Assembly (NCBI GenBank): GCA_965214915.1
Contig: CBDCCP010000002.1
Location: forward strand, 766,054-830,053
Direction of reading: 5' to 3'
DNA: 64,000 nucleotides
Source of the DNA: Bryobacterales bacterium
GTDB lineage: Bacteria > Acidobacteriota > Terriglobia > Bryobacterales > UBA6623
Made by a program: the position numbers and the translations under genes. The notes below the pieces were generated by a model that did no database searches, was not told the DNA's origin, and was given only the letters and a program-made list of their open reading frames with translations. Every line of letters starts with the position of its first letter. Within the stretch, counting starts at the first letter, position 1. Below are positions 8,049 through 56,805 of the stretch, one piece after another.

Positions 8049-8124
8049 GCCACGATAGCTCAGTTGGTAGAGCAGCGGTTTCGTAAACCGCAGGTCGTCG
8101 GTTCGAGTCCGACTCGTGGCTCCA
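8049..8124 (+). tRNA. tRNA-Thr (anticodon CGU), CCA encoded
   Basis: Hand-folded cloverleaf: acceptor GCCACGA/TCGTGGC, D stem GCTC/GAGC, anticodon stem GCGGT/ACCGC with loop TTCGTAA (CGT), T stem GTCGG/CCGAC with loop TTCGAGT, discriminator T, then CCA. Confidence 0.92.
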
Positions 8125-10110: not shown

Positions 10111-11721
10111 ATGGCTAACGAGGTTTTACTTCTCGCCAACGGCGACCTACGCCTCTCGGCGAACCGCAAGTGCTGGCCGGCCCAACAAGAGGTCGAGGGC
10201 AAGCTCGCCGCCGCCGTTGAGCGCGAGGGTTTTGCGGTGCGGCGGGCGCACGAGTACGACGCGGCGAAGGGGCACGGGTTCATCGACAGTCAGAAGCGCG
10301 GTCTCGAGGTCTTCCGCTCCATCGACCGCAAGCTGCCGCTGATCGTCGTCGAGGCGGTCTGGCAGTATTCGCAGCACATCCTCGCCGGTTTGATGAGCCA
10401 CGAGGGGCCGATTTTGACTGTCGCCAACTGGAGCGGCCAATGGCCCGGACTGGTGGGCATGCTCAACCTCAACGGCAGCCTGACCAAGGCCGGCGTTCCC
10501 TATTCGACGCTCTGGAGCGAGGATTTCACCGACGAGTTTTTTCTCAACGGCCTGCGCCGCTGGCTCGGCGGGAAAACGGTGCGGCACGCGAGCAGCCACG
10601 TGCGGGCGGCCGGCGACATGATGCTGCCGCACAAGGCGCAGCTCGTCGGCCGCGATGTTGCGCGAGAGCTTCAGGAGCGCAAAGCCGTCATGGGCGTCTT
10701 CGACGAAGGCTGCATGGGCATGTTCAACGCGATTATCCCCGACCGCTTGCTGGCGCCCACCGGCGTATTCAAGGAGCGGCTCAGCCAATCCGCTCTGTGG
10801 GCCGCCATGCAGGAGGTGACCGAGGAAGAAGCGGCGGCAATCCGCGCTTGGCTCGACGCCAGGGGGATGCGCTTCGACACCGGCGCGGACGAGGCGAGCG
10901 AGTTGACCGACGCACAGATTCTGATGCAGTGCCGGATGTATATCGCGGCGCTGCGCATCGCCGACGAGTTCGGCTGCGACGTCATCGGCATCCAGTACCA
11001 GCAGGGGCTGAAGGACATCTGCCCGGCGTCCGACCTGGTCGAGGGGCTGTTGAACAACGTCGAGCGGCCGCCGGCCAAGTCGAAGGACGGCCGGACGCTC
11101 TACGCGGGCCGGGCGCTGCCGCACTTCAACGAGGTCGATGAGTGCGCAGGCCTCGATGCGCTGCTGACGAACCGTATCTGGAACGCGCTCGGCTACGACC
11201 CGGAAACGACGCTGCACGACGTGCGCTACGGGGCGCCGTTCGCCGTCAACGGCAAGGAAGAGTTCGTCTGGGTCTTCGAGATCTCGGGTTCGGTCCCGCC
11301 GAAGCATCTGATCGGGGGCTACGCGGGCGCCGTCAGCGAGCGCCAGCCGCCGATGTATTTCCCGCTGGGCGGCGGCACGATCAAGGGAGTCAGCAAGCCC
11401 GGCGAGATCGTCTGGAGCCGTATTTTCGTGGAAGACGACAAGCTCAAGGCGGATGTGGGTCTGGCCAAGGTCGTCGAGTTGCCGCAAGAGGAGACCGAGC
11501 GGCGCTGGGCGGCCACGACGCCGCAATGGCCGATCATGCATGCCGTGACCTACGGCATCGACCGCGACCGCTTGATGGGCCGCCACAAGTCGAACCACAT
11601 TCAGGTCGCCTACGTTCCCGACAAGGCGGCGGCGACGCAGGCGCTCAGCGCCAAGATTTCGGCTTTCCGCAACCTCGGCATCGAGACGTTCCTGTGCGGC
11701 GGCGGGCACGACCTGGCCTGA
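10111..11721 (+). CDS. L-fucose/L-arabinose isomerase family-like protein
   Basis: 536 aa. The N-terminal pattern ([18 protein letters not shown]...GFAVRRAH...[16 protein letters not shown]) and overall size resemble FucI-like sugar isomerases. Assigned from recollection of the family only. Confidence 0.5.
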
Positions 11722-11785
11722 GCGGCAAGGGTTGCGCATTCAGCCGCCGTAACGCTACGCTACTGAATCGTTAAGGAAAGAAGGT

Positions 11786-12580
11786 ATGCGAGCATTTTTG
11801 CCTTTCGCGGCCGCGGCGGCGCTGCTGTGTACGCCGGCGGCGGCCCGAACGCACGAAACTAATCCGTTCGGCTCCGCCGAAGACCTTGCCGTCGGCAAGC
11901 GGCTGTACCGCGTCAATTGCGGCGTGTGCCACGGCATGGAAGGGAAAACCGGGCGCGGCGCGCGGCTGGCGCGCAAAGTCCATCGGCGGGCGAATACCGA
12001 CGCCGAAATGTTCGATCTCATCGAGAAGGGAGTGCCCGGCACCGATATGCCCGGCGTGTGGCTGGAAGAGGACGACATCTGGAAAATCCTGCTCTTCGTG
12101 CGCACGTTCGAAAAGACGGCGGAAGAACCCTGCCTCGCCGCGCCGGGCGACGCCGCCGAGGGCAGGGACATCTTTTTCAACCGCGCCGCTTGCGCCGCGT
12201 GCCATACGGTCGGCATGGGCGGCGGACGTCTTGGCCCCGACATGAGCTTTGCCGGCGCGGCGTTTTCGCGGGAGCAGCTTCGCGTTGCCCTGGTCGAGCC
12301 GCACCGGGATGTCGCCGACCGCTACCGCACCGGGCGCGTCGAGACCCAAGACGGCAAACGGCACGAAGGCGTCGTGATGGCGGAGAACGGCTACTCGCTC
12401 TTTTTGATGGACCGCTCGGAGGAAACCCTCGGCTTTCAAAAAGCGGATTTGCGGTCTTTCGCCGTTGTGCGCGAATCGCTGATGCCGTCGTACGCGGACA
12501 TCTTGAGCGCGGCGGATATGGACCACCTGCTGGCCTATCTCTGCTCGCTGCGCGGTTCCGAAAGGGGGGCATCCGAATGA
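11786..12580 (+). CDS. Dihaem c-type cytochrome
   Basis: Signal peptide and two CxxCH motifs (CGVCH, CAACH). Stop TGA 12578-12580 overlaps ATG 12577 of the PQQ dehydrogenase. Confidence 0.8.
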   Translation: MRAFLPFAAAAALLCTPAAARTHETNPFGSAEDLAVGKRLYRVNCGVCHGMEGKTGRGARLARKVHRRANTDAEMFDLIEKGVPGTDMPGVWLEEDDIWKILLFVRTFEKTAEEPCLAAPGDAAEGRDIFFNRAACAACHTVGMGGGRLGPDMSFAGAAFSREQLRVALVEPHRDVADRYRTGRVETQDGKRHEGVVMAENGYSLFLMDRSEETLGFQKADLRSFAVVRESLMPSYADILSAADMDHLLAYLCSLRGSERGASE

Positions 12581-20971: not shown

Positions 20972-21154
20972 AAGTTACACATTCCTCTTAAGATAGCCCT
21001 CGATGCGGGCAACTTTTCTGCGGAACGCAAAACCTCCAGCCTAACACAGGCCGGCAGCGGGGATACAGGAGCGTCTTTTCCAATACAAGAGTGAGCCTTT
21101 AATATCGGGGGAGTGAGACTCAGGGGATATGGCCTCGTGGGCAGAGTTTCTTCT

Positions 21155-21870
21155 GGGCTGGAGGTTGTGGCGGTCAATCCGTTGCGCTTGCGGCGCTTCG
21201 CGGAAGCGCTCGGCCAGTTGGCCAAGAGCGATCGGGTGGACGCGGGGATGCCGGCGCGGGTCGGACGCTTGGCGGGTCTGCAGGGGACGCCTCCGCAGCC
21301 GGAGAGCCTGCGTCAACTCCACGATTTGTTGATTTTGCAGCGCAAGTTGAGCCAGCAGCGCACGGCGCTGGGGAAGCTGCATGAGGAGTTGGAGCGCGCC
21401 CAGGCCGGGCGGCAGGCGCGTGTGCTGTTGCGCGCGCTCGAGCGGCGCCTAGCGGCCCTGGAACCATTGATCGAGGCCATGCAGCGCTGCGGACGCGAGT
21501 TTGGCGCGACGGGTCGAACTCGTGCGCTCGATTCCGGGAATGGGTCCGGTCAACGCCGCCAGCTTGTGCGCCGACATGCTCGAGTTGGGCCAACTCGAGG
21601 GCCGCCAAGCGGCCGCCTTGTTGGGCTTGGCGCCGTTTGCCGACGACAGCGGACGCCGGCAGGGCAGCCGCCGCATCCGTGGCGGCCGCGAACATCCCCG
21701 GCGTCTACTGTACATGGCCGCTACAACAGCCGTCCGCTGGAATCCCCCAATGCGGGCCTTCTTTGAACGCCTGGCCAGAAGGACAAAAGCTACAAGGTGG
21801 CCTTGGTCGCTGTAATGAGAAAGCTGATCGTGCTCGTCAACACGCTGCTGCGGGAGGATCGCCTCTGGCA
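21155..21870 (+). mobile_element. IS110-family transposase pseudogene (5'-truncated, at least two frameshifts)
   Basis: Three consecutive frames carry IS110 signatures: LEVVAVNPLRLRRFAEALGQLAKSDRVDA (end of the DEDD domain), then LVRSIPGMGPVNAASLCADMLELGQL...LLGLAPFADDSGRRQGSRRIRGGR...LYMAATTAVRWNPPMRAFFERL, then VALVAVMRKLIVLVNTLLREDRLW. The N-terminal ~100 aa are absent. Confidence 0.75.
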
Positions 21871-44869: not shown

Positions 44870-45646
44870 ATGAAAAAAAAAGCGCCGATCAAGGAGCCTT
44901 ATACGTCTCAGGCCGTGCTGCGCGCGCTCAAAATGCTCGAGGCCCTGGGGCAGTCGCAGGAAGCTCAATCGTTGCAGTCGCTTTGCGAGCGGCTCGGCTT
45001 GGCCAAGGCGTCGGCGTTCCGGCTGATGCATACCTTGGAGGAGGTCGGATACGTCGGCAAGGATGCTTCCGGCGGGTATTTCGCCGTCGGTCGCGGGTCG
45101 CTGCAGTCCGCCCGCTACCGCCGTCAACTGCCCGAAGCGGCGAGTCCCGAGATGCTTCGCCTGCGCCGGCGGTTTCGCGAAACGGTCAGCTTGGCGGCGC
45201 TCTTCGACAATCACGTAGAAGTCGTCGAAGTCTTTGAAAGCCCGGAGTTTATGCGCATGAGCAACACCGTGGGACGCATCCTGCCGCCGCACGCCAGCTC
45301 GCTCGGCAAGGCCATCGCCGCATTTCAAAGCGAGCAGCGGCGCGAGACGCTGGTGCGCAGCTACGGAATCTACCGCTATACCGCGAAGACCATCGTCGAT
45401 GAGAGCCGCTTGCAGCAGGAATTCGAAGAAATTCGGCGTCGGGGCCACGCAATCGATGCGGAAGAAAACACTATGGGCGGCCGTTGCCGCGGCGTGCCGC
45501 TGCTCGATGGGTCGGGCACGGCCTTCGCGGCATTGAGCGTCTCCATGCCGATCAGCCGCCACAAGACCGAGAGCATGCAGCAGCGCATTGTCGAAGCGCT
45601 CAAGGAAAGCGCCGAAAATATCGTCCGCGAGTTCGGCATGACTTAG
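44870..45646 (+). CDS. IclR-family transcriptional regulator
   Basis: N-terminal wHTH region (VLRALKMLEALG...QSLCERLGLAKASAFRLMHTLEEVGYV) and C-terminal IclR effector domain (..LPPHASSLGKAIAAF.., AIDAEENTMG..C..VPL). Confidence 0.9.
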   Translation: MKKKAPIKEPYTSQAVLRALKMLEALGQSQEAQSLQSLCERLGLAKASAFRLMHTLEEVGYVGKDASGGYFAVGRGSLQSARYRRQLPEAASPEMLRLRRRFRETVSLAALFDNHVEVVEVFESPEFMRMSNTVGRILPPHASSLGKAIAAFQSEQRRETLVRSYGIYRYTAKTIVDESRLQQEFEEIRRRGHAIDAEENTMGGRCRGVPLLDGSGTAFAALSVSMPISRHKTESMQQRIVEALKESAENIVREFGMT

Positions 45647-45701
45647 GCAAGCGCTCGACTGCAAGCGTCAATGCCGAGAACCTCTGAAAAATGAAACTTT
45701 T

Positions 45702-46685
45702 GTGCTAAAATGGAACTCTTCGAAATTCCATGCGCGCCGCCGCCTACTTTCCGCGTCTGACGCCCCGCGTTCAACACTGGAATTCCAAGTGAATAACGGC
45801 CGGGTAACATTTCTTTCGGCGCTCTTGACTCCCACTGCCGCCGGGGGGACGCTTGACCTGGACGCCTTGAGCCGGAATATCGAGTTCGTGATCGACGCCG
45901 GGGTCGACGGCGTCTGCGTGAACGGCGCCACCGGTGAGTATCCTCGTTTTACATCCTTGGAAAGGCGGGCGGTTGCCGAGAACGCGGGGGCGGTTCTGCA
46001 AGGCCGCGGTCGATTGGTCGTCGGCATCGGCGCCCCGACGCTCGACGAGTCGGTCGCCCTCGGCCGGCACGCTCTCGACCGCGGGGCGGACGCTCTGCTG
46101 CTGCCCCCGCCTCATTTTTTCCTGTACGAGCCGCAAGATGTCGCCTCTTTCTATTACGAGGCGGCGTCGCGCCTGGACGGTTCGATTCTGATCTACAACC
46201 TCCCGGCGTTTACGAGTCCCGTGACTCCCGAGTGCATTGCGCGGCTGGCCGCTGCTGCGCCCAACATTATCGGCGCGAAGGACAGCAGCGGAAGTCTTGA
46301 ATCTCTGGCCGCGCTCGAAAAGCAGCAGGCGGAGGTTCGCTGGATAGGCTATGACTCGAAAATCTCAGAGGCTTTGTCCTCAGGCGTAGCGAACGGCCTG
46401 ATTTCCGGCATTGCCGGCGTGTTCCCGGAAATCGTCGGCGCCCTGGTGAGCGCCCATCGAGCCGGCAATGACCCTGCGGCCGCCGGCGCGGTTCTGCTCG
46501 AGATCATCGAGCGCATCGAAACTCTCCCGGTTCCTTGGGGCTTGAAGCTGCTGGCGCAGCGCCGCGGCCTCGGAGAGGCGCATTTTGCCTTGCCGGTCTC
46601 GAACGGCCGGCGGCAAGAGTTGACCGTCTTGCAAGAATGGTTCGAGCGCTGGTCCGCCGGCCGGCGCCTGTTGCCGGTCGCATGA
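45702..46685 (+). CDS. Dihydrodipicolinate synthase / N-acetylneuraminate lyase family (class I aldolase)
   Basis: GVDGVCVNGATGEYPRFTSLER. Schiff-base lysine context IIGAKDSSG. The real start may be GTG 45789 (VNNGRVTFLSALLTP). Confidence 0.8.
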   Translation: MLKWNSSKFHARRRLLSASDAPRSTLEFQVNNGRVTFLSALLTPTAAGGTLDLDALSRNIEFVIDAGVDGVCVNGATGEYPRFTSLERRAVAENAGAVLQGRGRLVVGIGAPTLDESVALGRHALDRGADALLLPPPHFFLYEPQDVASFYYEAASRLDGSILIYNLPAFTSPVTPECIARLAAAAPNIIGAKDSSGSLESLAALEKQQAEVRWIGYDSKISEALSSGVANGLISGIAGVFPEIVGALVSAHRAGNDPAAAGAVLLEIIERIETLPVPWGLKLLAQRRGLGEAHFALPVSNGRRQELTVLQEWFERWSAGRRLLPVA

Positions 46686-46695
46686 GGAGGCGACG

Positions 46696-47760
46696 ATGAG
46701 CCCCACCACACGCCGTCAATTTTTGCGCAGCGGCGCCGCGCCGGCGGCCATGTCCGCCGCCGCTGCCTACAGCCCGCCCGCCCGCCCGGCCATCGACTGC
46801 CAAAGCCATCTTTTCGTCCCCGAGCTGGTCGAGATGATGGCCAAGAGGAAAGTCCCGCCGTACTCCTATAAGCAAGACGGCAACGTTTACGTCGTCACGG
46901 GGCCGCCGGGCGAATGGCGCCGCCGGCTGCGGGACAAGCACATGGACGCGGCGGCCAAACTGGCCGACATGGACGAAGCCGGGATCGAAAGGACGATGGT
47001 CAGCATCAACGATCCGGGGCCGGAAACATTCGGAACGGACGGCCCGGCCGCCGCGCGCATTTGCAACGACTGGATCGCCGATCTCGGCCAGCGCTACCCC
47101 GGCAGATTTTCCGGTCTCGCCGTGCTGCCGCTGCAAGACATGAACGCGGCGCTCAAGGAACTCGACCGCTGCGTCGGCAAGCTGGGCATGAAGGGCATCC
47201 TGCTCTATTCGAATCTCGCCGGAAAGTTTCCCGACGAAGAAGAGTTCCGGGAGTTGTTCGCGGAGGCGGAGCGCCGGGATATTCCGATTCTGCTGCATCC
47301 CGCGCACCCGGTGACGTTCGACGAAACCGAGGGTCACGGCATGACGGCGGGGCTGGGGTTGATGTTCGACACCACCATCGCGCTGGCCCGCATCATCCTG
47401 GCGGGAATCCTGGAGCGGCATCCGCGGCTGAAGCTCGTTTGCCCGCACGCGGGCGGCGCCTTGCCGTACCTGATCGGCCGCATCGATCACCAGACCCAGG
47501 TTCTCAAGCGCGGCGCCGAGCACATCGCCAAGCCTCCGAGCGAATACCTGCGGCAGGTCTATCTCGATGCGGTCTCGCCCATTCCCCTGGCGATCCGCTA
47601 CGGCATCGACTATGTCGGCGTTGAGCGCATGCTCTATTCGAGCGATCATCCCTGGGTAGATCCGAAAACCATCGCCGCGCACATCCAGAGCCTGGGGCTG
47701 CCGCCCGAGGACGAGGCGAAGATTTTCGGCGGGAACGCGGAGAGATTGTTCAACCTATGA
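46696..47760 (+). CDS. Amidohydrolase-2 (ACMSD-like metal-dependent hydrolase/decarboxylase) family protein with Tat signal
   Basis: TRRQFLRSGAAPAAMSAAAA leader, IDCQSHLF (metal-binding HxH-type start), ILLHPAHP, CPHAGGALPY, YSSDHPW. Confidence 0.8.
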   Translation: MSPTTRRQFLRSGAAPAAMSAAAAYSPPARPAIDCQSHLFVPELVEMMAKRKVPPYSYKQDGNVYVVTGPPGEWRRRLRDKHMDAAAKLADMDEAGIERTMVSINDPGPETFGTDGPAAARICNDWIADLGQRYPGRFSGLAVLPLQDMNAALKELDRCVGKLGMKGILLYSNLAGKFPDEEEFRELFAEAERRDIPILLHPAHPVTFDETEGHGMTAGLGLMFDTTIALARIILAGILERHPRLKLVCPHAGGALPYLIGRIDHQTQVLKRGAEHIAKPPSEYLRQVYLDAVSPIPLAIRYGIDYVGVERMLYSSDHPWVDPKTIAAHIQSLGLPPEDEAKIFGGNAERLFNL

Positions 47761-48683
47761 ATCCGGCGGCCCCGCCTCTGACGCGCCGCGACTGGCTGAG
47801 CATGGCCGCCGTGGCGTCATGCTCGTGCAGGCAGTCGGAACCGCCGCCTTTCCGCTTTCGGCTTGCCGTCTGCAACGAGACGTTTCAGCGCGCCGATTTT
47901 GCGGAAGGCTGCCGCCTGGCCCGCGAAACCGGCTATACGGGTCTGGAGATCGCGCCGTGGACGCTAAGCGGCGATCCCGCGTCCATCGCTCGGGCCGCCC
48001 GCGCGGACTGCCGCCGAGCCATGGCCGATGAAGGCCTGACCTGCGTCGGGCTGCACAGTCTGCTGACGGCGCCGCCGGGAGAGTTGCATATCACCACCCC
48101 CGACGACCGGGTGCGCAGCAGAAGTTGGGACTACTTCCGCAGATTGATCGACCTTTGCGCCGACCTGGGCGGCGACAAGCTGATGATCCTGGGTTCGGGC
48201 AAACAGCGCCGCACGGTCGGCGGCTCCAGCGTCGAAGATGCGCTGCGACGGCTCACGGACGGGTTGGCTGAAGCCGCGCCCCACGCGGAAGCGCAAGGCG
48301 TAACAATCTTGCCCGAAACGCTCGCGCCGCACCTCTGCGACGTGATGACGACGATGGACGAAACGGTGGAGATCGTTCGCCAAATCGACAGCCCGGCAGT
48401 GCAGACGATGTTCGACACCCACAACGCCGTTGCCGAAGAGTTGCCGCACGACCGCCTCATCAAGAAATACGGGCTGTATATTAAACATGTCCACGTCAAC
48501 GAAATGGACGGCAGCCGTCCCGGCGCGGGTGGCTACGACTTCGCGGCGCCGATGAAAACGTTGAAAGACATCTATTACCGGGGCTGGCTCTCGCTCGAGG
48601 TTTTTCGTTTCGAGCCGAGCGGCGAGGTTGTCGCCCGCGAGGCCGCGCAGTTCCTGCGTCGGGTCGAGGCCGGACTCGCCTAA
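47757..48683 (+). CDS. Sugar phosphate isomerase/epimerase (xylose-isomerase-like TIM barrel)
   Basis: ATGA overlap with the upstream gene. TRRDWLSMAAV leader. GYTGLEIAP, LMILGSG, ILPETL and HVHVNE are typical family strands. Confidence 0.8.
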   Translation: MNPAAPPLTRRDWLSMAAVASCSCRQSEPPPFRFRLAVCNETFQRADFAEGCRLARETGYTGLEIAPWTLSGDPASIARAARADCRRAMADEGLTCVGLHSLLTAPPGELHITTPDDRVRSRSWDYFRRLIDLCADLGGDKLMILGSGKQRRTVGGSSVEDALRRLTDGLAEAAPHAEAQGVTILPETLAPHLCDVMTTMDETVEIVRQIDSPAVQTMFDTHNAVAEELPHDRLIKKYGLYIKHVHVNEMDGSRPGAGGYDFAAPMKTLKDIYYRGWLSLEVFRFEPSGEVVAREAAQFLRRVEAGLA

Positions 48684-48699
48684 GCGCATGGAGGTTGCA

Positions 48700-49983
48700 A
48701 TGAATCGACGCTATTTTTTCGCCGGCGCGGCGGCTGCGGCGACGGCGGCCGCCCGCCGCTCGACGGCCGCGAGCGACAAGGTCAACCTGGCTTTCATCGG
48801 AGTAGGCGGGCGCGGGCGCGGCTTGGCCGCAAGCTTTGCGAAACTGCCCGATGTCAACGTCGCGCATCTCGTTGACGCCGACCAGGCTTCGCTCGAACGC
48901 GCCTTCGCCCGACTCGACCAGAACGGAATCGCGCGGCCGCCGACAAGCGGCGACATGCGCCGCGCTCTCGACCGCGCGGACATCGACGCCGTCGTGATCG
49001 CTACTCCCGATCATTGGCATACGCCGGCCGCGCTGCTCGCCTGCGAAGCCGGCAAAGACGTTTACGTGGAAAAACCCTGCTCCCACAACATCCGCGAGGG
49101 GCGTCTGCTGGTCAACGCCGCCCGCCACAACAAGCGCATCGTGCAGCACGGCACGCAGGCCCGCAACCGCCCTTCGACCGTGCGCGCCATCGATTATGTG
49201 AAATCGGGAAAGATCGGCAAAGTCCTGATGGCCAAGGCCTGGAATATCCAGTTGCGCGAGGACATCGGCCATAAGCCGGACGGCCCGGTTCCCGAAGGCG
49301 TGGACTACGACGCCTGGCTCGGCCCGGCGCCGTGGATTCCGTTCAACGAAAACCGCTTCCACTACAAATGGCACTGGCATTGGCATTTCGGCACCGGGGA
49401 TGCGGGAAACGACGGCGCGCACCAACTCGATATCGCCCGCTGGGCGCTGGGCGTGAGCTATCCGCAAACGATTTCGGGCATGGGCCGCAAGGTGTTCTTC
49501 GACGACGACCAGCAGACCCCCGACACGATGAACGTCACTTTCGACTACGGCGACAAGGCGATGATCTGGGAAATGCGCATCTGGACGCCCTACAAGATGG
49601 CAGGCGTCGATAACGGGGTCGCCGTGTACGGCGCGGAGGGCATGGTCCACATCGGCCGTTGGAACCGCCGCTGGGGTTTCAAGGTCTTCGACGCGCAGGG
49701 CGGGGAAGTCATGCACGACGCGGAGACCGAAGACGAGATGGCCGCTCACGGGCGGGACTTCATCGACGCGGTCAAATCCCGCAAGCTGCCCAACGCCGAC
49801 ATTGGCGTCGCGCATTTATCGGCGATGCACTGTCATTTGGCCAACATCGTCGCGCGGTCGAACCGCACCCTGCGCTTCGACCCCGAAAGCGAGACTGTGA
49901 TCGGCGACGCGGAGGCGAATCTCCATGTCAAGCGGCGCTACCGCAGGCACTGGGGAACTCCCAGGCATTTAGCCGGCGCGTGA
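48700..49983 (+). CDS. Gfo/Idh/MocA-family oxidoreductase with Tat signal
   Basis: GGAGG RBS 5 nt before ATG 48700. MNRRYFFAGAAAAATAAA leader. LAFIGVGGRGRGL Rossmann motif. YVEKP motif. Confidence 0.85.
   Translation: MNRRYFFAGAAAAATAAARRSTAASDKVNLAFIGVGGRGRGLAASFAKLPDVNVAHLVDADQASLERAFARLDQNGIARPPTSGDMRRALDRADIDAVVIATPDHWHTPAALLACEAGKDVYVEKPCSHNIREGRLLVNAARHNKRIVQHGTQARNRPSTVRAIDYVKSGKIGKVLMAKAWNIQLREDIGHKPDGPVPEGVDYDAWLGPAPWIPFNENRFHYKWHWHWHFGTGDAGNDGAHQLDIARWALGVSYPQTISGMGRKVFFDDDQQTPDTMNVTFDYGDKAMIWEMRIWTPYKMAGVDNGVAVYGAEGMVHIGRWNRRWGFKVFDAQGGEVMHDAETEDEMAAHGRDFIDAVKSRKLPNADIGVAHLSAMHCHLANIVARSNRTLRFDPESETVIGDAEANLHVKRRYRRHWGTPRHLAGA
49499..49977 (+). repeat. Direct repeat copy 1 (intact 3' end of the Gfo/Idh/MocA gene)
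   Basis: It aligns by eye, base for base, with 50558-51051 (offset 1059 nt at the left end). Roughly nine of ten positions are identical. Confidence 0.85.
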
Positions 49984-50014
49984 GGGAAGCGCCGCGACGA
50001 CCGCCCCGAACCCG

Positions 50015-50167
50015 ATGAAGGCGCTTGCGCTGCATACCTACGAGCTGCATCCGTTGAAGGGCGACCGCAAGGGAACCTTCGCCGTGACGGTGACCGGCAA
50101 CCAGCGGATAACGTTCCGCTACGACGGCGAGCACGCCTACGATGTTGCCTTGGCGGACTACCACTAG
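50015..50167 (+). pseudogene. higB: N-terminally truncated HigB (RelE-fold) toxin
   Basis: The 50-codon ORF MKALALHTYELHPLKGDRKGTFAVTVTGNQRITFRYDGEHAYDVALADYH equals the C-terminal half of HigB toxins (L.PLKGDRKG.WS..V.GN.RI.F....G.A.DV...DYH). The N-terminal ~40 aa are missing and the upstream in-frame sequence is unrelated. Confidence 0.6.
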
Positions 50168-50180
50168 AAGGGAGCAAACC

Positions 50181-50540
50181 ATGATCGCGGGAATGAACGA
50201 TAACGATTGGCTGCGGCGAAACCCGCTGCATCCGGGACAGCACATCAAGATCGGCTATTTGGATGCTTGCAACGATTACCCCGGCATGACCTTGGAAGCG
50301 GAGGCGAAGAAGTTGGGCATTAGCCGCATCACGCTGTCACGCATCGTGAACGGGCATCGGCCTGTCACGGTGGAGCTTGCGCTGAAGCTCGAAGCTGTCG
50401 GCTGGGGAGTAGCGGACAGTTGGTTGGCGCAGCAGATGCGCTACGACTTGGCGCAAGCCCGCAAGCGGTTGAATCAGCCCTTGGCCGAGGCCCCGGCCAC
50501 GCTGCGCGAGAAGCAGTTGCCGGCGGAAGCGGCGGCGTAG
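50181..50540 (+). CDS. higA: HigA-family HTH antitoxin
   Basis: HPGQHIKIGYLD...MTLEAEAKKLGISRITLSRIVNGHRPVTVELALKLEAVGWGVADSWLAQQMRYDLAQA is the canonical HigA pattern. It lies 13 nt after the higB stop. Confidence 0.8.
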   Translation: MIAGMNDNDWLRRNPLHPGQHIKIGYLDACNDYPGMTLEAEAKKLGISRITLSRIVNGHRPVTVELALKLEAVGWGVADSWLAQQMRYDLAQARKRLNQPLAEAPATLREKQLPAEAAA

Positions 50541-50557
50541 CATTCCGAAGCCGAAAC

Positions 50558-51051
50558 TCGATGACGATCGACAGACCCCCGACACGATGAACGTCGCCTT
50601 CGACTACGGCGACAAGGCGACGATCTGGGAAATGCGCATCCGGACGCCGTACCAGATGGCAGGCGTCGATAACGGAGTCGCCGTGTACGGCGCGGAGGGC
50701 ATAGTCACACGTCGGCCGTTGGAACCGCCGCTGGGGCTTCAAGGGCTTCGATGCGCAGGGCGGGGAAGTCATGCACGATGAGGAAAGCGATGCCCGGGAC
50801 GAAACGGCGATGGCCGCTCACGGGCGGGACTTCATCGACGCGATCGAATCCCGCAAGCTGCCGAACGCCGACGTCGGCGTCGCGCACTTGTCGGCGATGC
50901 ACTGTCATTTGGCCAACATCGTCGCGCGGGCGAACCGCACGCTGCGCTTCGACGCCGAAAGCGAGACCGTCATCCGCGACCCGGAGGCGAATCTCCACGT
51001 CAAGCGGCGGTACCGCAGGCACTGGGGAACTCCCCGGTATGTTTAGCCGGC
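50558..51051 (+). pseudogene. Direct repeat copy 2: displaced, frameshifted 3' fragment of a Gfo/Idh/MocA gene
   Basis: It encodes MNVAFDYGDKATIWEMRIRTPYQMAGVDNGVAVYGAEGIV. After a 1-nt indel, a second frame gives AAHGRDFIDAIESRKLPNADVGVAHLSAMHCHLANIVARANRTLRFDAESETVIRDPEANLHVKRRYRRHWGTP. This is nearly identical to the C-terminus of the gene ending at 49983. Confidence 0.85.
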
Positions 51052-51237
51052 TTGCGGCGAAATTTCCGGATAATTCCCCTCAAAAAAATTAACAAAACTG
51101 TAAAAATACAAGAATTGTTTGACGGCTGTTGATTTTGCGGCGCAGCGCGGTGTAGGGTAGCGTGCATCGGCTTAGCAGAAGGCAATAAGCGTTCGGAGCG
51201 AACATTTGTCGATAACCCTGAACAAAAAAGGTTTGGA

Positions 51238-52690
51238 ATGAGAAAGGCAGCCCGTCGACTATATCGTATAAACCGACCCTTTCACAGGCAGCAGCGCGGC
51301 GGGAAGTACGTCCAGCTATTCTTCACTGTTTGCGCCGCGCTGTCGGCTTCGGTCGCGCTGGGGCAGACCGCCGTCCCGTGGACGATCGAGACAGTCGCCG
51401 GCGCCGGATTCAGCGGCTACGGCGGGGACGGTGGCCCGGCGGCGCAGGCGCGGTTGAATCGCCCCGTCGGCGTGGCGCTGGACGGAGCGGGCAACCTGTA
51501 CATCGCCGATGGTTTCAACCACCGCATCCGCAAGGTGGACGCAGCCGGCGTCATCTCCACCGTGGCGGGCGACGGGACGGCCAGCTACGGCGGGGACGGC
51601 GGCCCGGCGGCGCAGGCGCTGTTGAGTCGACCCGCCGACGTGGCGGTGGACGGAGCGGGCAACCTGTACATCGCCGATACATACAACCACCGCATCCGCA
51701 AGGTGGACGCGGCCGGCGTCATCTCCACCGTGGCGGGCGCCGGGAGGGAAGGCTACGGCGGGGACGGCGGCCCGGCGGCGCAGGCGTGGTTGAATCAACC
51801 CAGCGGCGTGGCGGTGGACGGAGCGGGCAACCTGTACATCGGCGATCAGCACAACCACCGCATCCGCCGCCTGCGGCCGACGCCCCGGATATCTGCGGGC
51901 GGCATCGTGCTCGCTACCGGCACTCCTGTCGTGAGCCGCATCTCCCCCAACGCCATCGTTTCCGTCTTCGGACAGGATTTCGCGCCGCCGGGGAGGCAGG
52001 AGTCGAGCGCTCTGGACGCCGCAGGCAGAGTTGCCGACAGACTGGCCGGCGTCTGCCTGGAGATCGGCGGCAGGCGCACCCTGTTCACCTACATCGACGG
52101 CAAGCGCGCCCCGCTGTTCTACGTCTCCCCCACGCAGATCAACGCTCAAGTCCCCCACGATCTGACGCCGGGGCGGACGCAAGCGGCGGTCATCGACGGC
52201 TGCGGCTCGGACGCCGAATATCGCGGCCCGGAGACGCCGGTTGAGATCGGCGCGGTCTCGCCGGCCTTCTTCAACTTCGTGGACAACGGCGACGGGCGCA
52301 ACCCGCTCGTAGCCATGCACGGCGGCGGCCCCCGCCCTGGCCGGCGCGCCGGGCCTGCTGCCCGGAGCGGAGTTCACGCCCGCCGAGCCGGGCGCGATCG
52401 TCACCCTGTTCGGAACCGGCTTCGGAGCCGTCGAGCCGCCATTGGAAACGGGTCAAATCCCGGGCGCCGCGGCCAACTTGGTCAACGCGGCCGCCTTTAC
52501 CGTAGGCGGCATCGCGGTTTCCCCTGAGGATGTCCTCTACGCCGGCGCGTCGCCCTGCTGCGCCGGGCTCTACCAATTCACGCTGCGCCTGCCTGCCGAT
52601 CTGCCCGACGGCGACGCGCCCGTCATCGCCACGGCGCAAGGCGTTTCGACCCCTGAGGGGCCGTACCTTACCGTCCGCCGCCGGCAATGA
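51238..52690 (+). pseudogene. Secreted NHL-repeat protein with TIGR03437-like (Solibacter-type) C-terminal domain, interrupted by a frameshift in a C5 run
   Basis: Three NHL blades (GPAAQA.LN.P.GVA.DGAGNLYIAD..NHRIRKV) are followed by an IPT-like C-terminal domain. Frame 1 turns to R/P nonsense after MHGGGP (52329-52333 = CCCCC). The next frame continues sensibly (ALAGAPGLLPGAEFTPAEPGAIVTLFGTGFGAVEPPLETGQIPG...AGLYQFTLRLPADLPDG...) to stop 52690. Confidence 0.75.
51412..51870 (+). repeat. About 2.7 tandem copies of a 168-bp (56-codon) unit encoding NHL blades
   Basis: The string GGCGGGGACGG(T/C)GGCCCGGCGGCGCAGGCG recurs at 51421, 51589 and 51757 (period 168). The flanking sequence is near-identical at the nucleotide level. 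Confidence 0.8.
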
Positions 52691-53103
52691 AAGCTCTCCA
52701 CCGCCCGAAAAACGAAGGCGGGAATCGAAAAATGCCGCAAAGAATCGAGTCGTCCGACGCGGCGGAAGCGGTCGTCTCCGGCGGCGGTAGCGCGAGCCAA
52801 ACCGGCGTGACCGTCGCCGGCGAGTAACGATGCTATGGCATGACTCAAGAAGAGATCCGCGCGGTCAATCGCCAATCCGGATTTGCGGGCGATCGTCAGG
52901 GCAAGCGCTCGTCGCTGCGGCCGATGAGCCGGCCGGCGCTTTTGGCGGCGTTCGCGCCGAAAGCGATCCGGAAGTTCGCCGAAGCCAGGTTTCAATAGGC
53001 AGCGCTCCGCGCCGCCGCGGTCTTGCTGTCCACTATCCACTATCTGCCGCCCCGCCCCCATCGCGTATTCTGAGGGCGGAAGCATTCGTTCCGGGGAGGT
53101 CAA

Positions 53104-53895
53104 ATGGAGTTCCGTTCCATTCTCTATGCAGTTGAAGACAGTGTCGCCAAGATCACGCTGAATCGCCCGCAGGCGTACAACGCGCTCGACAAGCGGACTT
53201 TCCGGGAGTTCTTCGAGGCGGTCTCCGAGGCCGACGCCGATGAAGGCGTGCGGGTCATTACGATTACGGGCGCCGGCAAGGCGTTTTGCGCCGGCGGCGA
53301 TATCGCCGAGTTCGCCGCGGGCCTCGACCGCTCGAGTCGGCTGTTGAAGCGGATGACGCTTTTGGCGCACGGCGCGATGTCGCGGCTGGCGCGCTCGCGG
53401 AAGCCGTCGCTGGCGATCGTCAACGGGGTCGCCGCCGGCGGCGGAATCGGCATTGCTCTGGGCGCGGACCTGGCCGTCGCGGCCGAGAGCGCCAAGTTCA
53501 ATTTGGCCTACTCGGGCCTTGGGGTCAGCCCGGACAACAGCACTTCGTTCTACCTTCCGCGGTTGATCGGCCTACGGCGCGCGATGGAGATGGCCCTGCT
53601 CAACCGCGTGTTGTCCGCGCAGGAAGCCGTTGCCTGGGGCCTGATTAACCGCGCCGTGCCGGACGACGATCTTGAAGCGCAAGCCGCGGGGATCGCCGCC
53701 CGCCTCGCGGCCGGGCCGACTCTCGCCTACGGCGCGACGAAGCGGCTGTTCCACCAGAGCTTCAGCAATACTCTCGAAAGCCAGATGGAGTACGAAGCGC
53801 AATCGATCGCCGCCCTCAGCGAGACGTCCGATTTCCGCGAGGCGGTGACGGCTTTCGGGGAAAAGCGCAGGCCGGTCTTCAAGGGAGTCCGCTAA
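53104..53895 (+). CDS. Enoyl-CoA hydratase/isomerase (crotonase) family protein
   Basis: VAKITLNRPQAYNAL...ITITGAGKAFCAGGD...IVNGVAAGGGIGIAL is the canonical crotonase pattern. Confidence 0.85.
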   Translation: MEFRSILYAVEDSVAKITLNRPQAYNALDKRTFREFFEAVSEADADEGVRVITITGAGKAFCAGGDIAEFAAGLDRSSRLLKRMTLLAHGAMSRLARSRKPSLAIVNGVAAGGGIGIALGADLAVAAESAKFNLAYSGLGVSPDNSTSFYLPRLIGLRRAMEMALLNRVLSAQEAVAWGLINRAVPDDDLEAQAAGIAARLAAGPTLAYGATKRLFHQSFSNTLESQMEYEAQSIAALSETSDFREAVTAFGEKRRPVFKGVR

Positions 53896-53932
53896 TTCGG
53901 GGGATTTCACCCGAGTTCCGCCGCCGGCGGCT

Positions 53933-54382
53933 ATGCTACAGTGCAGTCCGAGGCATTGCCTCTCAGTCCGGATCGTGACCCGTTCGGTGAGCGCTTTAGT
54001 TTTGTTGGCGGCCGTTGCAGGCAGTCGAGAAACCGCCCTCCCGGCGAGCGCGGAGACTCCGCCAAGCCCTGTCGCATACTCCGCCGAATCCGTCCGCGAG
54101 GGCCGCAAGACGTATCTCCGACTCTGCCAATACTGCCACGGCCAGGATGGCCGCGCGCAGGCGAATCCCGACTTCGATGCGCCCAGCCTGCGCAGGCCGC
54201 AAGAGTGGCGGAACGGCGTGAGCGACGAGCGTCTCTTCCTGTCGATAAAGGACGGCGTCGGCCACGACATGCCCCCGTTTCGGACGCAGCTTAAAGACGA
54301 GCAGATTTGGCGAATCGTCCATTTTCTGAGAAGCATCGGCCCGGAGAAATACCGCGGTCCAGGCGGCGGCCGGCCTGAATAG
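53933..54382 (+). CDS. Monohaem class I c-type cytochrome (secreted)
   Basis: Hydrophobic leader (SALVLLAAVAG), CQYCH haem motif, and downstream Met ligand context (GHDMPPF). The start may be internal. Confidence 0.8.
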   Translation: MLQCSPRHCLSVRIVTRSVSALVLLAAVAGSRETALPASAETPPSPVAYSAESVREGRKTYLRLCQYCHGQDGRAQANPDFDAPSLRRPQEWRNGVSDERLFLSIKDGVGHDMPPFRTQLKDEQIWRIVHFLRSIGPEKYRGPGGGRPE

Positions 54383-54397
54383 TGGAGGGAAAGCAAC

Positions 54398-56323
54398 ATG
54401 GCGAGTGAAAAACAAGTGTCGCGGCGCAAGATTCTGGTAGGCGCGGCGGCGTCGGCCGCCGTTCCGACTGCGGCCGCGGCGGCAACGGAACGCGACCGCG
54501 GCATCCTGATTCCGCAAGAAGTGCCGGCGGCGTTGAGCGAAGAGCCGCGTCCGGCCGACTTCCCCATGACGGGAGCGCAGGTCTTCGCCAAGGCGTGCAA
54601 GGCGGAGGGTCTCGCGGCGCTGTTCTGCGCGCCCGGAAACTACACCGTCATCAATGCCATCGCCTCAGAGGGCATTCCCAGTTACGGCGGCAGGACCGAA
54701 GGCATGATGTGCTCCGCCGCCGACGGTTTCTCGCGCGTGACCGGCGAGGTCGCCGCCGCGTCGGGCACCGAAGGCCCCGGTTTCACCAACATGATCATGA
54801 GCGTCGCCGCGGCCAACGCGGCGCGCACGCCGCTGTTGTTGCTGGCGAGCAATATGACCGTGGGCCTGGACGACACGGAGCAGGCGATCCAGCGCGGGTA
54901 TCAGCAACCCACGACCGTCGGGCTGAGAAAGTACGGCAAGCGGCTCATCGACCCGCCCCGCGTCCATGAGTACGCGGCCTATGCTTTCCGCCAGTTGAAG
55001 ACAGGGGTGCCGCGGCCGGTCCATCTCGATTTTCCGGGCGAGGTCGCGCGGGCGGTGTTCGAGTCTCCCGAAGACCTGGCCTACTTCCACGACCGCGCCA
55101 AGTACCGCACCGAAGCGAAGCCCCATCCGGCGAAGAAAGACATCGAACGAGCCGCGCGCATGATCGCCGCAGCGGAGCGGCCCATTATCGTCGCCGGCGC
55201 GGGAGTTTTTTACAGCAAGGCCTGGGATGCGCTGCAGGCGGCGGCCGAAAAGGCCGATATCGCCGTTGTCGAATCCGGCCCCAGCCGCGGCCACTTCGGC
55301 GACGATCACCCGCTGTCGGCGAATACCGCGCCCGACGCGCTGCTGAGCGCCGACCTCGTCGTTCTCTTGGGGCAGTACGTGATGCCGACGATTGGGGAAT
55401 ACGCCTTCGACCCCGATGCCCGTTACATCCGCATCGACCCCGACCCGGCGGACATCGGCCGCAATCTGCCGATCGACCTGGGCATCGTAAGCTGCGAAAA
55501 AGCCGCGCTCGAAGCGTTGGCCGACACGCTCAAAAAGGCGCGGAGGCCCGCTTGGCGGGACGAGCTGGCCGCCGCCCGCAAGGCGTTTGCGGAGCAGAAC
55601 GAGGAATATTACAGGCTCGGCTTGCAGCACAGCAAGGCGGCGCAAGCGGTCCACCCGGCGGTGATCGCGCGCGAGCTTGGAGATTTTCTGTACAACGCCG
55701 AGCTCGACCCCAAGCAAACGACGGTGGTGTCGGGCGGCTACGGGATCGCGCGCTACACGCGGCGGTTCCTGCAGGCGCACCGTCCCGGACAAATCTGCAA
55801 CGGCGCCTATCAGTACGGCGCGATCGGGCCGGACGTGGGCTATACGGTCGGCGCCGGCGCGGCGGTCCAACAGGGAGTCGGTCCGCACAAGCCGTACAAA
55901 GGAGCGCCGGTCGTTGCCGTTACCGGCGACGCGGGCTTTGCCTACTCCGGCATGGAGCTCGAAACGCTGTCGAAGTACCGCATCCCCGCGGTGGTGATCG
56001 TCTACAACAACAACGCCTGGGGCGTTTGGCGCAGCGGCCAAACCGGCGGCAGAGCCAACACGGCGCGGGCGCAGCACATGTATCTCTTCCAGGAGAATCT
56101 GCGCTACGAGAAGATCGCCGAGGCGCTGGGCGGACGCGGCGAGTACGTCACCGCCGCCGCGGATTTCCGTCCGGCGCTGGAGAGAAGCTACCAAGCCGCG
56201 GCCGCGCGAGGCGTCTCCACCGTGATCAATTGCCAGGCGATCAAGGAATTCTGGAGCTCGCGGGACTATCCGCCGGGTTTGCTGCAGAAAGTCGAGCCGG
56301 GCTGCATGGCTTACTACCACTGA
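54398..56323 (+). CDS. Thiamine-diphosphate-dependent enzyme (acetolactate synthase / pyruvate oxidase superfamily) with twin-arginine signal
   Basis: [31 protein letters not shown] leader. N-terminal Pyr domain ([24 protein letters not shown]...[10 protein letters not shown]). ThDP-binding motif [33 protein letters not shown]. Confidence 0.85.
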
Positions 56324-56805
56324 TGATTGCCGCACAACGGACGGCCGATGACGTCGAGCGGTCGCTGCGCCGCTACGCCGACCGCGGCGTATTCCGTTCG
56401 TTCAGCGCGGCCGGCGCGCGCGGAGGCAAGCGAAAGTTTTCTTTCGAGTACGTGTCCGCGCGGCGCATTGAGCTGGTGTTCGATCCGCGGACGGGTTCGC
56501 TCACGCTCCCGCGCCTGTTGCCCAATGCCCCGGCCGATTCGCGGATTTACCGCGATCTGAAAGCGTTTGTCCGTTCGCGTACGCTGTCGGAGGTTCCCGA
56601 TCACCGCCGGATCGACCCCGCGCGCGCGACGGTGCAGTGCTCCAACCGCAAGGGGTACGTCACGCTCAAGGTGGTTCCGGCAGACGGAGACGCCGCCTAC
56701 GCCTGCCGCTCGGCGGTCAAGCTGATCGGCGAAGTCTTTCTGGGGTTCTTGAACGGCCCCTACGCGGAATACATGTTCGCCAACTTCGATCGGCCGGAAG
56801 AGTAG
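56323..56805 (+). CDS. Hypothetical 160-aa protein translationally coupled to the ThDP enzyme
   Basis: ATG 56323 overlaps stop TGA 56321-56323. The ORF is coherent and not low-complexity ([28 protein letters not shown]...GPYAEYMFANFDRPEE). I recognise no motif and see no signal peptide. Confidence 0.55.
   Translation: MIAAQRTADDVERSLRRYADRGVFRSFSAAGARGGKRKFSFEYVSARRIELVFDPRTGSLTLPRLLPNAPADSRIYRDLKAFVRSRTLSEVPDHRRIDPARATVQCSNRKGYVTLKVVPADGDAAYACRSAVKLIGEVFLGFLNGPYAEYMFANFDRPEE

Follow-up and report, generated by a model that had tools for sequence, protein, structure and literature searches.

In Escherichia coli, the prophage e14 (and likewise phage 21) lies within the gene for isocitrate dehydrogenase, at its 3' end, and carries a replacement for that end, an arrangement known as icd/e14/icdC (PMC13626634). 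The icd and icdC copies differ by substitutions, and recombination between them would yield a chimeric, functional gene (PMC13626634). C-terminal displacement is also known from the orphan modules of Rhs, CDI and T6SS effector-immunity loci, where it has been attributed to homology-facilitated illegitimate recombination: DNA anchored by homology to a conserved stretch of the gene brings in a new 3' part together with a small protective gene, and the old 3' part, truncated at its 5' end and unchanged in orientation, ends up downstream as an orphan (PMC5361080). Homology-facilitated illegitimate recombination itself has been described in the transformable Acinetobacter, Streptococcus pneumoniae and Pseudomonas stutzeri, and in conjugation of E. 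coli (PMC3240628).

The locus described here lies in the window, the whole 64-kb stretch of acidobacterial DNA that was analysed. An intact Gfo/Idh/MocA (GFO) oxidoreductase gene is followed by cargo, in the form of a decayed higBA cassette, and then by a second copy of the gene's own end, truncated at the 5' side, as a preliminary description of this DNA had reported. The features are as follows, with L numbers denoting the loci used for comparison.

48700-49983, plus strand: intact oxidoreductase gene of the Gfo/Idh/MocA family, 427 aa (GFO_IDH_MocA with the C2 and C3 domains in Pfam)
49499-49977, plus strand: R1, the upstream repeat copy and functional 3' end of the gene, with the short acidic linker that characterises the window's clade
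49978-49995, no strand: junction filler, about 15-20 nt, from the end of gene homology to the start of higB homology (register comparison with the higB of L089)
49996-50167, plus strand: higB remnant, homologous to full-length HigB from about residue 43 of 95
50181-50540, plus strand: intact higA antitoxin gene, 119 aa, HTH (HTH_3 in Pfam; TIGR02607 at 67.9 bits, cut-off 47.7)
50541-50557, no strand: 17-nt spacer from the higA stop to R2, the joint between cassette and gene remnant (homology to other higA loci ends at the stop codon)
50558-51051, plus strand: R2, 5'-truncated, frameshifted remnant of the gene 3' end, starting at codon 267, with the long linker of the L084/L081 clade
51052-51059, no strand: what is left of the native spacer behind the stop, with homology to the spacer of the empty site in L092
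51060-53006, plus strand: older variable cargo, made up of an AT-rich leader plus an NHL-repeat / Soli_cterm gene that is frameshifted

Local alignment places R1 at 49499-49977 and R2 at 50558-51051 in the same orientation, with 440 of 479 aligned bases identical (91.9%), 39 substitutions and three indels, and a repeat search detects the two in three blocks without gaps, each 90-92% identical. The gene's 3' end is thus present twice, as claimed, around 580 bp (49978-50557) that contain a truncated higB and an intact higA; the divergence, earlier put at about 10%, comes to 8% when substitutions are counted. One indel, near 50707, gives R2 an additional base (GGTC-CAC in R1 versus AGTCACAC in R2), so the frame of R2 is shifted, in agreement with the out-of-frame second copy of the preliminary description, which had also noted correctly that this copy lacks a 5' part. 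The other indels are 12 nt of acidic linker and 2 nt right before the stop, both present in R2 and missing from R1. Comparison with relatives makes both gaps features of R1, and the linker "insertion" that had been taken for decay of R2 is the linker form of another clade. The junction from R1 to the cassette reads TTTAGCCGGCGCGTGAGGGAAGCG, and that from the cassette to R2 reads GCATTCCGAAGCCGAAACTCGATGACGATCG.

The protein encoded by the intact gene carries PF01408, PF19051 and PF22725 (Pfam), with an N-terminal Rossmann and a C-terminal alpha/beta domain, and its N-terminus, MNRRYFFAG..., has a twin-arginine (RR) motif that, read by eye, is a putative Tat signal. Amino acid identity is 96% to P0168 and 93-94% to P0162-P0173. 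R1 completes the 427-aa reading frame, and comparison of C-termini with relatives shows the last residue, V, swapped for LAGA because the native stop is lost with the 2-nt deletion, and the frame now ends at the TGA at 49981-49983, inside the junction. R1 shares 93.9% identity with the L091 chromosomal gene, in which there is no element (97.8% over 49457-49775), and its short linker is common to nine clade members. Judged by these similarities, R1 is an ordinary chromosomal allele of the clade. The left repeat boundary lies inside the extremely conserved stretch FFDDDQQTPDT, and mismatch density to L091, low from 49457 to 49775, gave no clear discontinuity that would mark an ancestry break at 49499, in a region conserved in all pairs.

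In R2 the native stop, TAG at 51044-51046, is preserved, followed by 13 nt of native spacer and then by an NHL promoter and start region homologous to L091 11910-12230. Since the native stop is kept and the same spacer and NHL promoter follow as in the closest relative, R2 is, from its sequence context, in the position of the resident gene end. The NHL-repeat / Soli_cterm gene itself lies in two frames (51238-52527 plus 52442-52690), and the promoter, start region and right end of this cargo are homologous to the cargo behind the single GFO gene in L091. With its frameshift, its neutral changes and a W to R replacement in an invariant motif, the downstream copy is a dead remnant.

Private changes distinguish the two copies sharply. 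Eight synonymous changes and one non-synonymous change are private to R1, compared with one synonymous and 12 non-synonymous, plus a frameshift, for R2 (Fisher p = 0.0002). R1 is under selection, and R2 is evolving neutrally, without constraint. An earlier polarisation that used only L084 and L081 as outgroups made R1 the odd copy and was superseded by closer relatives in the 90% cluster. The long-linker block of 12 nt in R2 equals that of the L084/L081 clade, the states common to R1, L091 and L092 at alignment columns 4, 396 and 423 are missing in R2, and 29 of 461 positions still differ between the copies once the columns private to R2 are taken out. By these measures the copies go back to different alleles and not to a recent identical duplication, as the preliminary description had argued from their divergence; a later homologous replacement of R1 could also give the difference. 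Along the region, identity to L091 and L092 forms a mosaic that shows frequent recombination between species. A crossover in the middle of the repeat was also considered and rejected: the reciprocal mosaic expected from it is not seen in segment-wise distances.

Flanking DNA at 45000-49977 and 52923-56000 is collinear with L091 and L092, and a single GFO gene, with no toxin-antitoxin pair, is found in L081-L088, L091 and L092. The site right behind the GFO gene is a variable spot: nothing occupies it in L092, L081 or L086, and the cargo differs between L084, L091 and the window. Of 94 loci with a GFO relative, only the window shows an intact gene followed by an orphan piece of the gene's end, so the search of related Acidobacteriota for further occupied sites, which the preliminary description had proposed, turned up none besides the window. 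A scan of genome contigs gave relatives of at most 71% identity among the matches listed. Several candidates for further C-terminal relics were discarded. The many short database proteins starting MGRKVFFDDDQQ reflect contig-edge or first-ATG effects, L093 is accounted for by a frameshift at low coverage, and L094 is a truncated homologue that stands alone.

The cassette has the toxin-first order of chromosomal type II HigBA cassettes and a HigA HTH above the NCBIfam cut-off; it differs from them in a toxin that lacks its N-terminal ~42 residues and its own promoter region, and it is therefore an orphan antitoxin and not a working module. The higB remnant, which falls short of a complete RelE-fold toxin, has an ORF of 50 aa from the ATG at 50015 (50015-50167), and the fragment matches Pfam PF05015 over positions 51-91 of 91 (E = 0.0019), at 19 bits, below the gathering score of 27, compared with positions 3-91 for the full-length HigB of L089; the remnant is 78% identical at the nucleotide level to L089 7820-8351 and is presumably inactive. 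HigA aligns over its full length with 120-aa relatives, of which the nearest (76% at the amino acid level) belong to chromosomal cassettes of sister genomes, and the truncated toxin and intact antitoxin of the preliminary description are both upheld. This family of cassettes is endemic and often decayed in related genomes, with a tandem array in L089 and an orphan higA in L090 and L097; these closest HigA loci stand elsewhere in their genomes, away from the GFO gene. A metagenome scan with HigA returned two distant matches. The 17-nt spacer has no obvious match in the gene upstream of 49499, and an integron-type attC behind higA was dismissed on length alone, as 17 nt are too short to hold one.

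We consider it somewhat better than an even bet that the locus is a one-off recombination scar between related lineages, formed without a dedicated site-specific element. The ancestral chromosome would have carried the GFO gene followed by the NHL cargo, as in L091. Incoming DNA of a related lineage would have consisted of the 3' part of the gene, now R1, with higBA in the variable spot a few bases past the stop. Its gene side would have been joined through homology, and its far side, 17 nt past higA, through an illegitimate joint to codon 267 of the resident gene, so that the mechanism would be homology-facilitated illegitimate recombination; a single homologous crossover with a circularised fragment of R plus cassette would be an equivalent route. 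As a result R1 would complete the gene, and the resident end, R2, would have moved 1,059 bp downstream, lost its function immediately on displacement and decayed by ~3% since. The present state is an intact oxidoreductase with a slightly altered C-terminus beside a dead R2 and a presumably dead HigB fragment, and HigA is an orphan antitoxin, probably transcribed by read-through from the oxidoreductase gene. The recombination route, and a donor in which the GFO gene stood beside higBA, are what we infer here.

Such an event would resemble the displacements at Rhs, CDI and T6SS loci, since here too an intact gene is followed by new DNA and by a 5'-truncated remnant in the same orientation that is joined to the old downstream DNA. 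Those loci, however, encode polymorphic toxins with hypervariable ends, arrays and diversifying selection, whereas the window has a conserved oxidoreductase, ends that were about 94% alike at origin, a decayed higBA cargo and a single displacement. Homology-facilitated illegitimate recombination likewise offers one homologous anchor, one illegitimate joint and foreign DNA trapped beside the anchor, but it is known from laboratory crosses, and here it would be read from a scar alone. Several points weigh against the scar. The postulated donor, with higBA directly behind this GFO gene, was not found in any fetched locus, in a sampling that is sparse. That higB breaks off exactly on the side of R1 requires either a donor cassette that was already truncated or a later deletion. 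Private synonymous changes are nearly absent from the inferred ancestor of R2, contrary to expectation if it belonged to a long independent functional lineage, and the allele difference could postdate the event, through homologous replacement of R1. If this reading holds, the locus is a clean natural trace of a one-sided exchange between related Acidobacteriota, homologous at one end and illegitimate at the other, in which the end of an ordinary metabolic gene was displaced and a datable fossil allele left behind, and it would extend C-terminal displacement beyond polymorphic toxin loci.

The scarcity of synonymous change in the R2 ancestor is what a fossil of the lineage's own older allele would look like, and it leads to an alternative that we regard as unlikely: a local tandem duplication of 49499-49977 in the window's lineage, with two initially identical copies, that captured a higBA fragment at its joint by end-joining repair, after which R1 was overwritten through homologous recombination by alleles of sister species. 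An order of A-R-filler-R-B is the product of tandem duplication with a junction insertion, both ends of the cassette look arbitrary, the private changes of R2 are essentially all of pseudogene type, and the mosaic identity to L091 and L092, with the frequent interspecies recombination that it indicates, would supply the overwriting. This sequence of steps requires at least two events, with the later import having to end inside R1, and the older resident allele would itself have to be recombinant, because the long linker of R2 is a derived form belonging to another clade.

The preliminary description had read the locus as the footprint of a site-specific integrative element. In that reading, R1 and R2 are the attL and attR of an element that inserts at codon 267 with a 480-bp replacement end, and of which most, including the integrase, has since been deleted; we find this improbable. 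Its appeal lies in the match to icd/e14/icdC, where, too, the gene is completed by the upstream copy, while the downstream one, beyond the inserted DNA, is a C-terminal pseudogene that occupies the resident site, in the origin of R1 and R2 from different alleles, and in a left boundary that falls within the extremely conserved FFDDDQQTPDT. Toxin-antitoxin pairs, moreover, are common cargo of islands. Yet e14 is 15 kb long, has its own integrase and excises, whereas here 580 bp hold no recombinase and the repeat is about 480 bp. The 580-bp insert and the collinear flanks contain neither a recombinase nor any further element gene, and across the scanned parts of the 64 kb the one mobile-gene trace, an IS110 fragment, lies at a distance of 28 kb. 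Unlike e14, the arrangement has no second occupied site among the 94 loci, and its gene-completing copy is the clade's ordinary chromosomal allele, whose identity to L091 and clade linker fit ordinary chromosomal DNA as well as, or better than, an element-borne attP arm. With no integrase, collinear flanks and no recurrence, the link to a site-specific element is not supported. Of the proposed surrogate end, the resident status of R2 survives, but a foreign origin of R1, a normal clade allele with no clear break at 49499, is not supported.

Neither the repeat peptide nor HigA has a relative among the IMG/VR viral contigs, and a plasmid search, made with HigA only, gave relatives of at most 45% identity. 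The phage record MT835796, considered as a mobile carrier, has a full-length GFO-family gene and not a fragment, in an unverified scaffold with a weak match. The locus yielded no tRNA and no Rfam family, nor did it show a terminator-like site or an anomaly in composition. An integrative element would also demand an ad hoc internal deletion that spared both repeats. Its most specific form, a degraded element that used the invariant FFDDDQQTPDT-coding stretch of a putatively Tat-exported oxidoreductase as attachment site, carried an unusually long replacement end of 480 bp and left only an addiction module, strikes us as quite improbable. The claim to novelty is also overstated, icd/e14/icdC being the classic case of insertion, with a replacement end, at the 3' end of a protein-coding gene. 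On the favoured reading the locus opens no new class of mobile element, and its chief practical use is cautionary: the end of a gene repeated on both sides of a toxin-antitoxin pair is not in itself evidence for an integrase-driven island.

That two full-length copies, paralogous or xenologous, once flanked higBA, and that deletions took the 5' 800 bp of the second copy and the 5' part of higB, is very doubtful. Two or three GFO-family genes do stand close together in some distant loci (L001, L020, L025 and L037), but the syntenic L081-L088, L091 and L092 have no second copy at the site, so the tandem full-length paralogues named in advance as evidence against an element were not seen either. 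A duplication or acquisition and two independent deletions would be required, and R2 abuts the resident downstream DNA exactly like the single gene of L091. An assembly artefact that stitched two strain variants of the gene end in tandem is scarcely credible: the assembly is of metagenome type, with the window's proteins on a single 1.7-Mb contig, but the variant of another strain would be expected to be intact and to differ mostly at synonymous sites, and not to be a frameshifted copy with 12 of 13 private changes non-synonymous and W turned into R, the 580-bp cassette would go unexplained, and 8% divergence is far from the near-identity that assemblers collapse or duplicate.

Apart from the origin of the repeat, varied cargo accumulates at the spot right behind the GFO gene. 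A transposase-like frame in the 600-bp gap behind the GFO gene in L091 was set aside for want of a Pfam or NCBIfam match. The insertion points lie 5, 6 and 13 nt behind the GFO stop, within or beside a 14-nt palindrome.

The direct repeat that the preliminary description placed around a decayed higBA cassette is real and lies where it was reported. By local alignment, 39 substitutions and three indels separate the upstream copy (R1, 49499-49977) from the downstream copy (R2, 50558-51051), which match at 440 of 479 aligned positions (91.9%). A repeat search also detected them, as three ungapped blocks with 90-92% identity. R1 forms the 3' end of a complete gene for a Gfo/Idh/MocA oxidoreductase with a putative Tat signal (GFO). 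A 2-nt deletion just before the native stop of this gene abolishes that stop, and the protein now terminates ...PRHLAGA, its C-terminal V replaced by LAGA.

Features of the locus and window
48700-49983: GFO gene, intact, 427 aa, with Pfam N-terminal and C-terminal Gfo/Idh/MocA domains
49966-49983: altered GFO gene end; vestigial TAG (49970-49972) out of frame and read past, TGA in the junction serving as new stop
51238-52690: NHL-repeat/Solibacter C-terminal-domain gene, split by a frameshift
21113-21763: IS110-family transposase fragment (Pfam DEDD_Tnp_IS110 positions 68-142 of 155)

The two copies are separated by 580 bp containing a HigB fragment, which matches only positions 51-91 of 91 in its Pfam profile and scores below the gathering score, and a complete HigA (HTH_3; TIGR02607 at 67.9 bits, above cut-off). 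Similarity to a sister genome's full-length higB starts near 49996, which corresponds to roughly residue 43 of the 95. The nearest relatives of the cassette are chromosomal higBA genes (76% amino acid, 78% nucleotide identity) in the genome that also carries L091, one of the related loci fetched for comparison.

Relatives of the cassette in fetched loci
L089, 5334-8363: tandem array of three higBA cassettes; toxins one full-length, one 71 aa, one 43 aa
L090, 8001-8363: orphan higA of the cassette family, 74-75% amino acid identity, without a called higB
L097, 2803-3165: orphan higA of the cassette family, 74-75% amino acid identity, without a called higB

Because two of the three L089 cassettes have a truncated toxin and L090 and L097 have orphan higA genes, this endemic family usually ends up with an intact antitoxin beside a truncated toxin. 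In the L089 array, which adjoins HEPN/DUF499 and GmrSD genes, two antitoxin genes have identical C-terminal halves.

The GFO protein falls in a 90% cluster together with, among others, P0168 (96% amino acid identity, locus L091) and P0167 (94%, L092); more distant are P0001 and P0004 (86-87%, L084 and L081) and P0006 (82%, L086). The common gene order is DHDPS, amidohydrolase, AP_endonuc_2, GFO, and then enoyl-CoA hydratase (ECH), cytochrome c and a TPP enzyme, except that L081 and L082 are without amidohydrolase and AP_endonuc_2 and that L086-L088 differ in their upstream neighbourhood. Relatives' syntenic loci have a single GFO gene each, with no second gene end or toxin-antitoxin pair. Identity to L091, L092 and L084 is 88.9%, 90.3% and 83.2% upstream (45000-49977) and 92.0%, 89.8% and 85.9% downstream (52923/53007-56000), and both flanks are therefore of the L091/L092 clade. 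The DHDPS region (45700-46900) is closer to L092 (88-90%) than to L091 (80-84%), and the gene end with downstream genes (49100-56400) is closer to L091 (93-97%) than to L092 (90-93%). Such mosaic ancestry indicates that these species recombine frequently.

R2 occupies the exact position of the single gene's end in L091, since it retains the native stop (CAT/TAT GTT TAG, as in L084, L091 and L092) and 13 nt of native spacer, beyond which lie an NHL promoter and start region homologous to L091 11910-12230. When each copy was compared with the other and with L091, L092, L084 and L081, eight of nine private substitutions in R1 were synonymous and one was non-synonymous. Outside its linker, R2 has 13 private substitutions, of which one is synonymous and 12 are non-synonymous (Fisher p = 0.0002 for the contrast), one of the latter changing the W of the invariant RIWTPY motif to R; R2 also has a 1-nt insertion. 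By this measure R1 has served as a working gene end, and R2 has drifted freely, by about 3% since function was lost.

The copies also represent different alleles. R1's short linker (DAETEDEMA) and motif VIGDAEAN are common to nine clade members, the short linker being the outgroup form too; the linker of R2 is 12 nt longer and has the sequence of the L084/L081 clade. At alignment columns 4, 396 and 423, R2 is ancestral and R1, L091 and L092 have common derived states; derived states common to R1 and R2 alone number only one or two. (Polarisation with only L084 and L081 as outgroups was misleading and has been superseded.) Because of these differences, and because 29 of 461 sites still differ once R2's private columns are removed, a recent duplication of a single allele is excluded unless other events followed, and the earlier proposal that the two ends come from different lineages holds. 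That R1 is a foreign surrogate end is not evident: it carries the clade's own states with no clear break at 49499, and its identity to L091 is 93.9% overall and 97.8% over 49457-49775.

The interval from the GFO stop to ECH varies from locus to locus. It is empty (about 50-100 nt) in L092, L081 and L086, holds a 748-aa ORF without a Pfam match in L084, and extends to 6.2 kb in L091, encoding one NHL protein of 1,272 aa and another that is cadherin-like; in the window, R2 follows the cassette and is itself followed by an NHL gene shorter than that of L091. In the empty site, the stop is followed by a perfect 14-nt palindrome, CCGCGGCGCCGCGG, and insertions begin 5, 6 and 13 nt past the stop, within or next to the palindrome.

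Spacer sites compared
Window: 49973-49995, 51047-51059 and 53007-53103
L092: 11276-11375
L091: 11273-11290

The locus thus reads as gene, newly arrived DNA, and then a 5'-truncated resident end running into old downstream DNA, an anatomy that any unit of repeat plus cassette integrating through homology in the repeat would give. A linear fragment could have entered by homology-facilitated illegitimate recombination (HFIR), with the homology anchor on the gene side and an illegitimate joint at codon 267; a circularised fragment could have entered by a single crossover; or the event could have been site specific. The first two routes require no element genes and fit R1's ordinary chromosomal nature, the arbitrary cassette ends and the variable spot behind the stop. 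HFIR is documented experimentally, and the same kind of displacement has been put forward to explain orphan effector and Rhs ends (PMC5361080); the anatomy of those C-terminal displacement loci is alike, whereas here the gene is a conserved metabolic one and the event single. On balance we favour an ordinary recombination scar as the origin of a real feature that the preliminary description characterised well. This reading is weakened in that a donor with higBA behind this GFO gene was not found in the fetched loci, and in that R2's inferred ancestor is almost without private synonymous changes.

A local duplication that captured filler, after which another allele replaced R1, would add a second event to the excluded simple duplication, and we regard this course as unlikely. 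The degraded integrative element proposed earlier is quite unlikely, and one with this gene as attB distinctly so. No recombinase or element gene occurs in the insert or collinear flanks, base composition is ordinary, and the IS110 fragment is the sole mobile-gene trace in the scanned parts of the window. No tRNA or Rfam family was found near the locus; the window's single detected RNA gene, tRNA-Thr (CGT) at 8049-8124, lies in a 58% GC kilobase. A tblastn search with the N-terminal and C-terminal protein halves, covering every one of the 94 fetched loci that contain a GFO relative, found an orphan C-terminal piece downstream of an intact GFO gene in the window only. IMG/VR held no relatives of the repeat peptide or HigA, and HigA relatives on plasmids reach at most 45% identity. 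A "phage" match considered as a mobile carrier proved to be a full-length gene, and the scaffold that carries it is unverified; short C-terminal database "proteins" considered as recurrent relics were products of contig edges or frameshifts. Insertion into a protein-coding 3' end with a replacement end is, moreover, well known from the E. coli prophage case icd/e14/icdC (PMC13626634), so that the element model, even if right, would be another case of a known type, and the novelty claimed for it is overstated; the locus falls outside that family on integrase and on recurrence. Tandem full-length copies reduced by two later deletions, set against a single GFO gene in every syntenic locus, are very improbable, and an assembly artefact is barely credible.

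Several further features were noted. L094 819-1541 is a lone 5'-truncated GFO homologue (240 aa, 62% amino acid identity to the repaired R2 peptide) with a divergent DUF6788 gene as its neighbour; it lies on a metagenome contig of 57 kb and is unrelated to the window event. The split in the NHL gene reflects either pseudogenisation or a sequencing error: the first ORF (51238-52527), which has an arginine-rich, out-of-frame tail, covers Soli_cterm profile positions 5-131, and the second (52442-52690), read in a different frame, covers 151-225. The NHL repeats of this gene are encoded at 51391-51894 by three tandem 168-nt units, 76-86% identical. In L091, about 600 bp without a called gene (11273-11890) separate the GFO stop from the NHL promoter, and an open frame there (…SESYRERGRVCKRPLANLSKLPPAGIEALRRVL…) has no Pfam or NCBIfam match. 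Window 51060-51126, which separates R2 from the NHL promoter region, is very AT-rich (CCTCAAAAAAATTAACAAAACTGTAAAAATACAAGAATTG) within a 64% GC genome and is missing at the corresponding place in L091; a motif resembling CGAAATTTCCGGATAAT recurs in L091 around 11325 and 11911.
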